Positions 1 to 63,825 of a stretch of 64,000 nucleotides of DNA are shown here, piece after piece. The DNA is from Eledone cirrhosa (lineage: Eukaryota): assembly GCA_964016885.1 (NCBI GenBank), contig CAXHJY010000710.1:22158-86157 (forward strand), read 5' to 3'. The notes under the pieces were generated by a model that did not search any database, was not told the DNA's origin, and saw nothing but the letters and a program-made list of their open reading frames with translations. The translations under genes were made by a program, and so were the position numbers. How positions within the stretch are numbered: the stretch's first letter is position 1; the number at the start of each line of letters is the position of its first letter.

Positions 1-2495
1 ATACATGTACACACACATAGATATATATACACATACACACATACACACATACATATAAAGTCATACACACACATACACCTACACGAACATACACATACAC
101 ATATATAAAGATATATATACACACACACACACACACATACACACACACACATATATATAAAAAATAAAGATATATATATATATATATATATATATATATA
201 TATATATACATACATATACATACACACATACCTAGACATATATGTACATACATACACATACATAGATACATACACACACATACATACATATATATATACA
301 CACATAGACATATACATACATACACACACAACTTACATATACACATATATACTCATACATAGAATTAGATATATAATCATACATACATACGCACTTACAT
401 ATACTCATATATACAAATACATACGCATCCATATATGCGTATATACATAGAAACACCACTACAACCTCACCCAACTCAGACCTACAAAGAAAAAGGCATA
501 TACATATACATATATACACGCATTAATAGAGATATATATACACACATATATATATATATATATATATACACACATACACTTATATATATATATACCCACA
601 CACACATACTACCATAAATACACATACAAACACCCACATATACATATATATACACACATATATATATATATATACACACACATAAAAAACAGACATGCAC
701 ATATATATTTTTTTACACATATATATACACATATTATATACATATACACACCCTCACATATACACACATACACATAAGTTATATTATAATAATAAATAAT
801 ATATATATATATACATATATATATATACATATATATATATATATATATACACACATACGAATATAGACATATATACACACATAGACATATATATATATAT
901 ATATATATATACACACATACATATACACAGACACATATACACACTCACATATATATGTGTGTGCACACACACATATATACACATACACACATATACACAT
1001 AAACACATATATGTGTATACATGCACACACACACATATATCCACATAGATACGAAGATAGACATATAAATAGAGAGACATACATATATATACACACACAC
1101 ATATACATACATACATACACACATATATATATATATATATATATATATATATATATATATATATATACACATACACACATACACGTACACACATATATAC
1201 ACATGCATATATACACATATACACATACATACACACATATATATATACACACACAATCTTACATTCTTATTTGCATGCGCATATATGTATTTTTATATTC
1301 AGATATAAATACCCAAACATATATACACCTACCTACATATATATTCATACATACACGCTTACAAACACAGATGATAATAGTATGGGGGAAAGGGGGGGGG
1401 GGTTGGAGAAGGGGATTATAGTAAATATATGTTTCAAGAAACATAGAATATTATCCGTATCTGGATCCAATGTATGTTTTTACATAGTTTCAGTGTTAGG
1501 AAATACAATAAACAAGAAATAAGGCAAAATTTATGCATTTCAAAATAAATAAGTATACCATTAATTATATGTTAACTAAACTAAAGATAGTTAACATATT
1601 GATTTCTAAGGTGTAAATTAGTTAGGTTTATAATATTTGAAGCAGAATTTTGAAGTTAAATAGTAGTAGAGTATTAATTATAGTATAACTAAATTAAAGT
1701 TAATAACGTTATGGTATCAATATTAGGAAATGAATTTAGTAATAGGGAAAAAACAAATAAAGTATTACATCGGTAGTAGAATATAAATTATAGGTTAACT
1801 AAATTAAAAATTATATATTTATTTCTATAGTATATGTTAATTAGGTATATAATAAATAAAACAGATATTGTATTTTATCAATAGCAGAATATAATTATAT
1901 GCAAATAGAAATCAAAATTAATACATATACATATACATATACATACACATACATATATACATATATATACACATATACATATACATATATACACATATAC
2001 ACACACATACACATACACATACATATATACATATACATATTTTTTCAAAAATTGCATAGAATATATTAACTAGGTATATATCCAAAACACATCCCATTCT
2101 ATGATTACATGACATTCTGCAATTGGTCTGTATAAGGATACCAATTTTAAGCCAATTAAATTAAATTTTTAGGTTGATTAAAATTAAAACCAAATAATAA
2201 ATATATTTCTAAAATGTATATTAATTAGGTCTATAATACTAAAAATTATTTCTCTGTCATTGGATACACGATATTTTGTTATAATTTATCTGTAAAAGAA
2301 TTATAATAAAAGGTTTAAATAAATTAAAATGAATCTATAAATTAAATTACTAAGTATATATTAGTAATATTTAAAGGTTTTTCACAATTTATGATTACAT
2401 AATATTTTATATTCTCATCTGTAATAGAATTTTAATTAAATTAAATTTATAGGTTAACTAACATTTAAATTAAATTAATTTCTAAAATAATGTTA

Positions 2496-60845: not shown

Positions 60846-63825
60846 GTTATATTTGGGGAGGGTCATATTTGCGTAATATTGCCAGAATTAATAACAGAAC
60901 ACACTCACTGTTTGGTTGGTTTTCGCTTCTCGCTGTCTTTTATATATATATATCTGCGATCTAACTTACTCGGTCCTCAATGTTGCCATTGACTGACCGG
61001 CGGTCAAAAATAATACAGATACAATATAGACAAACACATATATATATAGTTTACATAAATCTTTCGTTGCACATCTGCAACATCGTCAGTGGTGTTATAT
61101 TCATTGTTCCTCCTGTTGTGTTGTATGTCTACGCCATTTTTTTTGTTCAGTCTGTCTATATATTTATTTATTTATTTGCTTGTTTGTTTATCTTATTTTA
61201 TTTTGTCTTCTTTGCGCATGCGTTTGCGTGTGTGTATAGTGTTATGTGTGATGTGTGACTAGTGTGTATAGTGTTGTGTCTGCTGGGTGACTAGTGTGTG
61301 TTTATGTGCTTGTGTATGTATTTATTTATCTTATTTTATTTAATTTAATTTACTTATTTATTTATACTTCTCTTAGGTCAGTGTTGTTTGTTTGGGTGTT
61401 GTTGTTGTTCCACTCATTCTTTCTGTTTAGCTTTGGTCTTCTAATTTCTATTTCACTGGCCTCTCTGATTTGCCTATCTGCTGGGTCATTCCTATGTTTA
61501 GATATTATTCTAATTTCTATGTTGTCTATGTTACCGTCATGATGTTGTCTAGCATGTTCGTATAGTACTGACCCGTTTTTTCGTCCTTTTAGTTCCCCCC
61601 AGTGTTGGTCTATCCTTTCACCTATGCTACGAGCTGTCTCACCTATGTATGTTGTTGTCGTGTTTCTGCAAGTACCCTCTGTACATCTTATGCTATAGAC
61701 TACGTTTCTAGTTTTACAGTTTATCCGGGGGTTCACCTTACATATGATACATTTCCTATTGGTACAGTGGGTTTTCTTAAAAGGGTAGGTTTTGCTGATC
61801 AGGGATTTTATGGTGGTTCCTGGCTTTTCTACCACCTTTATTTTTAAGTGGGTCTTTCTCAGGGCCTTTCTACACTGGTTAGCTAATTTCCCTCCAGGGG
61901 TGGCGTCCACAAACATGACACTCTGATATCTCTGGTTGTCGTACCATGATGTGGCCTTCCCTATCTTATGTCTAGCCCTATCTAAGCTATTCCATGATTT
62001 GCTCCTGTATAGTGGGCAAATTCCTTTCATGTCCAGTTCTATGAGGGTCTTATACTGTTCCATGGCTCCTTCGTATACTCTGACTCTGTCTCTTTGGTTG
62101 TAGCCAGAGAACTGCATGCGGTTGATGAAGTGTTGGATGTGTCCTTCCATTTCTGTTGGGTCGCACATGCTGGACACATTCTTCATCACTCGTACCAAAT
62201 CTGCGATCAGAATATTAAACTTAGCACTACTGGACATTGCTGAGTTTTTGAGTATCAGGTATTTGGAGGCCATGGGTTTAGCATAGTGTGAGTGGAGAAT
62301 TTGGGCTCTCTCGTCTATAGTGTTAATCCAGAGTTCTGTGTCTAATACAGGTAGTCTATTGTTAGGGTGTTTGGAAGGGAAGTCTATAGTTACAGTTATA
62401 CTCTGGTGTATGGAATTAGCTATCTGCTGGATGCTTTCCATCGTGCTACGTTCTAAATCAAACTTGTTAGTGCTCTCTAGTGGGGGTGTTCTTATAACTA
62501 TATTGATATCGTCTACATAACGAGAGTACATGATGAGGTCTATGGAGCTTTCATTAAGGAGATCTTTAAGTCTCCTTTCCCACCATACCATGAAAAGGTT
62601 GGCAACATCGCCAGCTATGCTTTCGCCGATGGCTGCTCCCTCATTTTGGGTGTAGATTTTCTCATTGAACTTAAATATGTGGCCCTTTAGGGTAGTTTTG
62701 ATACTAGCCCCTATTGCATGTGCGACCATTTTTCTTACCTGATCAGTGTTTTGGGGGGTCCGTATAGCTTTGGTCCACCCAATCCACCTTCCTATGGGAG
62801 TCTTTTTAGCCATTGAGGTTATGGTGGGGGGTCTACCTCTTATAGGTCTACTAGGGCAGAAACATCTAAGGTCATGGCTGTCTAGGTAGTCAGTGTCGTA
62901 GGTAAGTCTAAGTAGGAGGCCCAGTTCGTCTGTGTCGACGTCGCAGAACTCCACCTCACTCTCAATGATCATCTCCACACATCTTTTCACAGCAAAATCA
63001 ATGTTAATGGATGGGTACAGTGACACCACATCCATGCTGCCTATTATGCAGTTGGATAGGCTCCTGTTTTTGTTGCACTCACTGATTCTGCTGAGGAGGT
63101 CCTCTGTACTTTCACATACATCTGGGGACATCTTGATTATGGGGCGCATAACCATTGAGAGGAAGTAGGAGATCCTGTAGTTGCTAGCTATATTAGCTCC
63201 GCATACAGGTCTTGTTGGTGGTCCTATTGTCGGGTCGTCGACTGTCTTGTGGTCTTTGCGGAGCCCATACAAGGGTGGTATGCCATTGTTAGACGCCTGG
63301 AAGTTGTTGGCAGTGCGTCTGCTTGGCTTTAGGATGTCAGTCCACATCATCATGTGAGCGTTGAGGATTTTTTCTCTCCCATCGTGTGTTAGTTGTGCAA
63401 CTTCGCTCGTGTTGGTGATGTGGGGTTGCATTGCCTCGATGTAGTTCGGCATGCTATCTATTGACATCCTACCAGACTTATCTGTGGGTAGACACACTAC
63501 CTCACCATCCCTTGTGCGCTGCTTGAGGCTAACCAAGCCTTCTACAGGTTTTATCCCAAGTTGTTGGGCCTCTGATCTGCTCTGTCTCATAGTGTACCTG
63601 TCTACTACTTGTCTAATCTTATTTCTAGCTATGGTGAACTGTGCCTCCGTCTCGTCATCTATTTGTTGTGGTATGCGAGAAGCGAAAACCAACCAAACAG
63701 TGAGTGTGTTCTGTTATTCATTCTGGCAATATTACGCAAATATGACCCTCCCCAAATATAACAATATCTGTTTCGACACACGATTTCATATAAAAAACCT
63801 CGCAAAACTAATTCATCGCCGCTAT
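60846..63825 (-). mobile_element. Neptune-like PLE, 5'-truncated, with inverted terminal pLTR fragment (63676-63825)
   Basis: Minus-strand ORF and ~515-nt 3' UTR with an HHR-like motif at 61053-61093. 63676-63762 is the reverse complement of 60846-60933. Confidence 0.88.
61362..63675 (-). CDS. PLE reverse transcriptase + Cys-rich linker + GIY-YIG endonuclease (open frame, N-terminus lost)
   Basis: [118 protein letters not shown]. Clade assignment is tentative. Confidence 0.9.

Follow-up and report, generated by a model that had tools for sequence, protein, structure and literature searches.

The 64,000-nucleotide stretch of Eledone cirrhosa DNA considered here (assembly GCA_964016885.1, contig CAXHJY010000710.1, positions 22,158 to 86,157 of the forward strand; hereafter the window) is a TA-rich piece of animal DNA that contains long (TA)n arrays, in and beside which Penelope-like elements (PLEs) stand as pairs of arms joined head to head, both outer ends being 3' ends of the element. 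This raises the question of how a single insertion comes to carry two arms of opposite orientation. From our point of view, it is fairly probable that the form results from the reverse transcriptase (RT)-endonuclease of the element priming on both strands of the target, at one start site that includes the element's tail and one that does not, followed by end-joining of the two products.

By self-comparison of the window and alignment of the arms, we recovered outward-facing inverted arms in all eight insertions listed in an earlier note on this DNA and in the ninth that it had called possible. They represent eight inverted PLE-type families, namely two assigned by motif to the Hydra type (A and C), one to the Neptune type (B, with the insertions B1 and B2), and five without a recognisable open reading frame (ORF; D to H). 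Entries without a strand cover both arms, and pLTR stands for pseudo-long terminal repeat:

1..4178, minus strand: left arm of family A (Hydra-type PLE), with a 5'-truncated ORF for RT and GIY-YIG endonuclease (2499-4181) and a microsatellite-rich 3' region; its outer end lies beyond the window
4179..7670, plus strand: right arm of family A, beginning at the mirror of 1847
9469..9927: B1, family B ends head to head, with the tail on the left arm (~9469-9528)
9949..10786: H, inverted arms 9945-10117 and 10560-10749, hammerhead core at 10597 (plus strand)
16617..16905: F, arms 16685-16776 and 16818-16910, hammerhead-like motif at 16786 (minus strand)
18153..19480: G, 140-bp inverted arms 18314-18449 and 19341-19480
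26305..30185: D, left arm 26305-26786, right arm ending at 30185, hammerhead core at 30058 (plus strand)
46989..51548, minus strand: left arm of family C (Hydra-type PLE), ordered pLTR-tail-ORF-pLTR, with a frameshift near 48617 and an end without tail
51547..56343, plus strand: right arm of family C, pLTR-tail-ORF-pLTR plus a 116-bp tail (56228-56343), hammerhead cores at 52482 and 56077
57424..58840, minus strand: left arm of E, 2.4 tandem 591-bp non-coding units with a U3/A8-variant hammerhead (retrozyme-like) and a 163-bp tail (57424-57586)
58841..59004, plus strand: right arm of E, 164-166 bp, a 100% mirror of 57587-57752, beginning at the 5' strand of hammerhead stem I
60846..63676, minus strand: left arm of B2 (Neptune-type PLE), 5'-truncated ORF 61365-63675, hammerhead core at 61089, without tail
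63675..63825, plus strand: right arm of B2, 88 bp of pLTR end plus a ~60-bp tail

In 9/9 insertions the arms run antisense on the left and sense on the right, as judged from the ORF in A, C and B2, from homology to B2 in B1, and from the hammerhead-like motif in D, E, F, G and H. All nine lie in or adjoin TA runs, and in all nine the arms overlap at the 3' end of the element. The coordinates of the earlier note are approximately right, except that one-sided extensions probably carry H to 10786 and may shift the start of G to 18153; for the insertion at 1-7670 the outward 3' end is borne out on the right, while the left end lies outside the window.

A search with each family's end additionally retrieved three solo, non-inverted copies, all in or beside TA, which are counter-examples that had been omitted from the claim of near-universal inversion:

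19562..19920, plus strand: B3, solo family B copy with a hammerhead core at 19679, without tail or inverted arm
24524..25260, minus strand: K, hammerhead-bearing (core CTGACGA at 24611), 5' limit uncertain, no inverted partner detected within the window
40357..41262, minus strand: A2, solo copy of the family A end inside a TA array, without inverted arm

Two further small elements, in neither of which a hammerhead was recognised, are inverted as well:

9229..9397: I, an old element with arms 84% identical and a one-sided 30-bp extension
59430..59558: J, in a TA array, with a one-sided 32-bp extension

The inverted form accordingly accounts for 9 of 12 recognisable insertions (exact 95% confidence interval 43-95%), or 11 of 14 if I and J are included, a share that is biased upward as inverted copies are easier to spot than solo ones within one window. 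It is the majority form, but not a near-universal one.

What distinguishes the two arms is the tail. In all eight insertions with both ends visible, one arm is longer at its 3' side, by 37-163 bp, and in none of them do both arms end at one position of the element, which contradicts the symmetric priming proposed before; with independent choice of sites, exactly one tailed arm would be expected with a probability of at most 0.5 per insertion. The extension is confirmed as element sequence, that is, as a PLE tail, in B1, B2, C and E, where it recurs elsewhere in the element. It is putative in H (right only, 37 bp, 10750-10786), F (left only, ~70 bp), G (left only, 18153-18308) and D (right only, ~67 bp). 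At the five verified end sites, the overlap with TA is 4, 3, 5, 3 and 6 nt (P=0.002 if the cut points are drawn at random and 0.018 with a best-phase null model), which is suggestive of an enrichment of short TA motifs at element ends. The tails share no common hairpin (z +1.4 to -6.6 against mononucleotide shuffles); the 163-nt tail of E (57424-57586) folds with -61.4 kcal/mol into three hairpins and provides the lowest of these z values (-6.6). A further candidate rule, that the tailed arm is always the shorter one, is true for B2 and fails in C, D, E and F.

Both the one-sided tail and the short TA motifs at element ends fit a paired priming at two RNA sites. In the reading that we favour, the RT-endonuclease would nick both target strands within a TA array and prime two cDNAs, the first from the distal site, which yields an arm with tail, and the second from the proximal site, which yields an arm without; the RNA templates would be tandem copies or separate ones. 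Pairing of the ...TATA-3' primers with short UA motifs at either start site may contribute, and end-joining would finally connect the 5'-truncated ends of the two cDNAs, leaving 0-3 nt of overlap or a short templated filler between them. The TA target would probably assist this process without being required for it. Whereas the arms, tails and overlaps are read directly from the DNA, the two-strand priming, the pairing of sites and the joining step are what we infer from them.

Insertion B2 is the most informative in this respect. Its 150-bp arm carries the tail and lacks the ORF, and its 2.8-kb arm carries the ORF and lacks the tail; since neither arm contains the other, B2 needs two priming events and cannot be a copy of itself. 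The proposal of two separately primed cDNAs, already made in the earlier note, hence holds at least for this insertion with its complementary arms. Biochemical support comes from the Anolis Poseidon element PAc (PMC11167929): the purified protein, a predicted dimer, cuts and extends both strands at an ATT motif in a target that is not a TA repeat, and reverse transcription starts at two RNA sites bounding the tail, as do the tail and no-tail ends in the window. The start of PAc differs in being an AC-rich stem-loop not homologous to the target, whereas the verified ends in the window lie on 3-6 nt TA motifs. Inverted copies are not discussed in the main text of that paper, where the sole 'inverted' is a blocking dT.

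The joining step can be assessed at the junctions, whose previously given positions (4179, 51547-48, 58841 and 63675-76) proved correct. Overlap was scored for A, B2, C and E, as D, F, G and H have no reference to score against. The arms overlap exactly by 2 nt in C, by 2 nt in B2 (a value that relies on the continuation of the ORF seen as a loose read end at 63676) and by 0 nt in E, where an imperfect in-register 5-nt match stems from hammerhead stem I. In A the overlap is 3 nt if the ORF runs to 4181, the upstream reference there being deduced only from protein similarity to C. The B1 junction contains a 21-nt spacer copied from neighbouring sequence (9717-9737). Taken alone, the junctions of C, B2 and E show no significant excess of overlap (P=0.15).

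More joints are available from sequencing runs of other samples, of which four out of eight listed were compared with B2 and X1 and X2 (word share 0.10-0.11) were left aside; the joints come from the raw short reads of two samples of one study (X6 and X7; restriction-site-associated DNA (RAD) library). Among the best-supported 15 of 274 joints listed, eight connect opposite strands, at identical coordinates in X6 and X7 and with 101-207 reads each. Their overlaps of 2, 1, 0, 0, 3, 1, 2 and 3 nt equal those of a head-to-head geometry in 8/8 and those of a tail-to-tail geometry in 1/8. A ninth inversion joint, 62289 to 63762, has 96-113 reads and 4 extra letters, its sense arm consisting of the tail alone. 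The mean overlap of the eight joints is 1.5 nt compared with 0.64 for random family B joins (P=0.017), and 1.45 if C, B2 and E are added (P=0.009). The joining at short microhomologies that the earlier note had proposed is therefore retained as a mild tendency with overlaps of 0-3 nt; the statistical support is weak (P ~0.01-0.02) and B1 has a spacer instead. None of the joints reaches thousands of reads and the depth of family B at the same sites is at least 40,000, so that the junctions appear to be newly made with each insertion. With ~42,000 molecules beginning at one restriction site compared with 100-200 reads per junction, family B is present in hundreds or more copies in this genome, in which several families are young.

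Several observations weigh against the favoured reading. The extensions of D, F, G and H (4/8) could be host DNA, and the tail-less end of B2 has 0 nt of TA overlap, which raises P to 0.014-0.066 if it replaces the end of B1. Both arms of B1 break off at one and the same base, with a templated spacer between them, which better suits hairpin self-priming, and in C, D, E and F all of the arm without tail is also present in the tailed arm, as is compatible with fold-back copying. In PMC11167929, the use of start sites does not differ between the strands and the start site is not homologous to the cut DNA. With regard to the reads, the 15 joints are not a random sample and begin at only one or two places, as given by the RAD library, and they are unsupported in the X3/X4 contigs; among the 16 pieces listed out of 29,837, none is shown to span junction 63676 of the window. 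The call for reads across the junctions is thus answered for the family B head-to-head joints of other samples, but not for the window's own junction at 63676.

The best-surviving alternative is that one cDNA (or an antisense RNA template; Arkhipova 2013) folds back and primes itself, so that the second arm would be copied from the first and become attached short of the tail. Self-priming has been deduced from palindromic junctions in PMC3846280, and B1, a near-perfect palindrome whose arms both depart from the B2 reference at base 61029, is of this kind. The junction of E (58833-58849) also suits it, the left arm reaching to 8 nt 3' of where the ribozyme is predicted to cut and the right arm beginning with the complementary strand of stem I, as does the containment of the tail-less arm in four insertions. 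B2, however, could not be built in this way in either direction, and in the joints from the other samples the two arms are truncated at very different points, as much as 2.7 kb from each other. Fold-back copying fits B1 and perhaps E and is possible for C, D and F, but as the general explanation it appears rather unlikely to us; the two routes may both operate. The variants among the four pLTR copies of C are private or concern microsatellite length and do not separate a fold-back from a two-cDNA origin. The idea that truncation of the arms generally follows from where the ribozyme cuts was considered and rejected, as only E fits, with B1 stopping ~27 nt and B2 ~120 nt downstream.

The earlier note had favoured a different cause, namely that (TA)n is self-complementary and makes both ends of a cut prime, inversion thus being a property of the target. 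The location of all nine inverted insertions in or next to TA and the short TA motifs at their ends agree with this. The same structure is, however, typical of Penelope copies in Adineta that reside inside other transposable elements with target-site duplications of 8-10 bp (PMC3846280), and since it occurs at such non-TA targets, TA self-complementarity is not needed; the two-strand cutting and extension in vitro without a TA repeat (PMC11167929) point the same way. In the window, furthermore, the arms are not symmetric, the three solo copies lie in or beside TA, and an APE-type long interspersed element (LINE) has copies in these very arrays (RT at 36227-37546, 38232-40136 and 41762-43670) that are direct without exception, although the three may be one insertion plus duplications. 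We therefore consider target self-complementarity an improbable cause; in a weaker form, TA pairing may help both primers to anneal.

Finally, large palindromes in TA-rich DNA are a known class of artefact, the C palindrome spans 9.35 kb of such DNA, the window's own junctions are not shown to be spanned by independent reads and the G-over-C polarity of the TA flanks flips across B2, but fold-back read chimeras or assembly errors are very unlikely given arms that differ, are asymmetric and carry one-sided tails, a flank polarity that is kept across C, D and E (3/4 informative cases), and base-identical junctions of the same kind in two other samples with 96-207 reads each. The ORF regions of the C arms differ at 8 positions in 2368 nt, and arm identity is 84-99% in most small elements. 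In the TA array left of B2 (59560-60845) the plus strand has 89 G and 0 C, compared with 1 G and 13 C on the right (63826-64000), and the motifs of the flank differ between the sides as well; the flip possibly represents an inversion linked to the insertion, the window ending soon after it.

The identity of the elements can be addressed by the proteins of A, B and C, each of which has RT motifs and a Y(I/V)GxT endonuclease motif. Pfam returned no matches for the A and C proteins and only a sub-threshold RVT_1 for B, and tblastn recognised no ORF in D, E, F, G, H or K. The protein of A (2499-4181, minus strand) is 38% identical to those of C (48617-50455, minus strand; 52798-55116, plus strand, with its ATG at 52798 and one internal stop). 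Both have the CxCX5C linker of the Hydra clade (CNCRNKANC in A, CNCTYPDNC in C), lack the CCHH motif and show CxxC and CxH near the C-terminus (CRLC and CNH in A, CKLC and CRH in C); C further has RWK at residue 37 and DKT at 121, a region in which A is truncated. By these marks, defined in section 11 of PMC8557442, A and C are Hydra-type PLEs, with which they also share the hammerhead and the (TA)n targets, RWK and DKT being common to the clade and family C; the unit of C is, at 3.6 kb, longer than the 'generally <3 kb' of that clade. The B protein (61365-63675, minus strand) has a CX4CxxC linker, x4-C before YIGET, two cysteines between the GIY- and YIG-like motifs and histidines downstream, as in CCHH-type endonucleases. 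Its linker and endonuclease motifs make B a Neptune-type PLE, which shares the cysteine/histidine pattern and the TA targets with that clade and has DKS instead of DKG. The ORF is 5'-truncated, many relatives of its protein having 1000-1200 residues, and its closest named match is an Octopus vulgaris protein (67% identity). The repeated pLTR or partial tandem that is typical of endonuclease-containing PLEs is present in C (pLTR-ORF-pLTR in both arms), E (tandem units) and B (pLTR end repeated).

Hammerhead motifs connect the coding with the non-coding families. A descriptor scan of the window, with stem I of at least 4 bp, matched B, C, D, H and K and yielded seven loci, compared with 0.07 on average and never more than 1 when the sequence was shuffled 30 times; of these seven, one lies inside a minisatellite (12190-12640; core 12520, minus strand) and is probably a chance hit. 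The motifs of A, E, F and G, which the scan missed because of a long or mismatched stem II, were located by eye and their stems checked. That of A has the core CTGAAGA at 7329, a 115-nt stem II and a 6-bp stem I; D has a canonical core and a 6-bp stem I; E has TTGATAA (U3/A8) with stems I-III, each tandem unit carrying a type I hammerhead motif. F (TTGAAAA, weak stem I), which uses the U3/A8 core as E does, and G (CCGAAGA at 19394, plus strand, and 18396, minus strand) are degenerate. The type I motifs at 7329, 52482, 56077 and 58849 have stem II inserts of 115, 88 and 57 nt and a palindromic stem III. Rfam reported no hammerhead in the window at the gathering score, and at E<=10 the best 150 of 670 rows were all microRNA matches driven by microsatellites. 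Judged by sequence motifs, the elements are, as the earlier note had recognised, hammerhead-bearing PLEs, together with non-coding derivatives of them.

The architecture itself, including the tail on one arm, is known PLE anatomy. Two pLTRs with an adjacent inverted pLTR and a one-sided tail are 'the typical Penelope structure', and the head-to-head form is 'the most frequently observed' in Adineta (PMC3846280); the same layout is depicted in Fig. 2 of PMC8557442, so that a majority of inverted insertions is no novelty. Inverted pLTRs are listed as a hallmark for curation in PMC8969392, and many rearranged copies with long inverted repeats were found in transgenic Drosophila (PMC3681739). With endonuclease-containing PLEs (PMC3846280, PMC8557442) the window elements share the head-to-head arms, the outer 3' ends, the one-arm tail, partial tandems, the pLTR hammerhead and microsatellite targets. 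They differ in tail length (~30 to 163 bp compared with 30-40 bp), in the 9.35-kb palindrome of C, in which both arms hold the whole ORF, and in the long stem II inserts (57-115 nt) of the hammerheads of A, C and E. Tandem hammerhead units have been described as non-autonomous PLE derivatives in 10.64898/2026.07.22.740005, and E shares with these non-LTR retrozymes its tandem non-coding type I units (2.4 in number). As E also has a PLE tail and an inverted arm, which they lack, it fits a mobilisation by a PLE.

A comparison also suggests itself with L1 twin priming, in which two primers give rise to tail-out arms and a head-to-head joint with a short overlap, the arms stemming from non-overlapping parts of one RNA. 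The likeness lies in the two primers, the tail-out arms and the short-overlap joint; in contrast, the arms in the window start within 30-163 nt of each other and overlap. For 5'-inverted L1 copies and twin priming we refer to 10.1101/2024.12.14.628481. In the literature searched, in which the Penelope papers of 2005-2006 are incompletely covered, we found no statement of a TA-palindrome or paired-site model.

Other elements share the window. The APE-type LINE (33335-43756) comprises an ORF1-like frame (33335-34543), an endonuclease (34764-35651), the RT at 36227-37546 and a (TTCAAAGTTA)n tail; two further 2.0-kb 3' copies have the same 5' start (= 35637) and a TA array before each, and copies 2 and 3 look like a tandem duplication. 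Upstream of the LINE there is a perfect 50-bp tandem duplication (33009-33111). A PIF1 helicase ORF (12885-14846; PF05970, PF21530), flanked on both sides by the same 27/32/59-bp minisatellite (12190-12640, 15051-15286), is probably part of a Helitron. GC-richer islands between or near TA arrays (31265-31870, 7950-8420), without match elsewhere in the window, are possibly fragments of other mobile elements. Within the G-rich microsatellite of D, a C-rich segment of ~370 nt (27941-28310) resembles an inverted copy of 27520-27912; whether it is a nested strand flip is uncertain, the sequence being of low complexity.

One could further speculate, more tentatively than for two-strand priming as such, that in TA-targeting PLEs one enzyme dimer primes both strands coordinately, at a tail and a no-tail site, with the ...TATA-3' primer pairing to a 3-6 nt UA motif. 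If true, a single step would account for the TA preference as well as for the inverted pLTR and the tail on one side only, and palindromic microsatellites would show inversion more often than (CA)n or other targets do. On the practical side, such insertions are large palindromes, which annotators may misread as chimeras or as miniature inverted-repeat transposable elements. Because of its many family B copies and several young families, the genome lends itself to a count of target types, of junction overlaps and of how tailed and tail-less arms are paired, by which two-strand and fold-back priming would be told apart. The one-sided tail together with the TA motifs at the start sites provides a testable model of an open step in PLE transposition.

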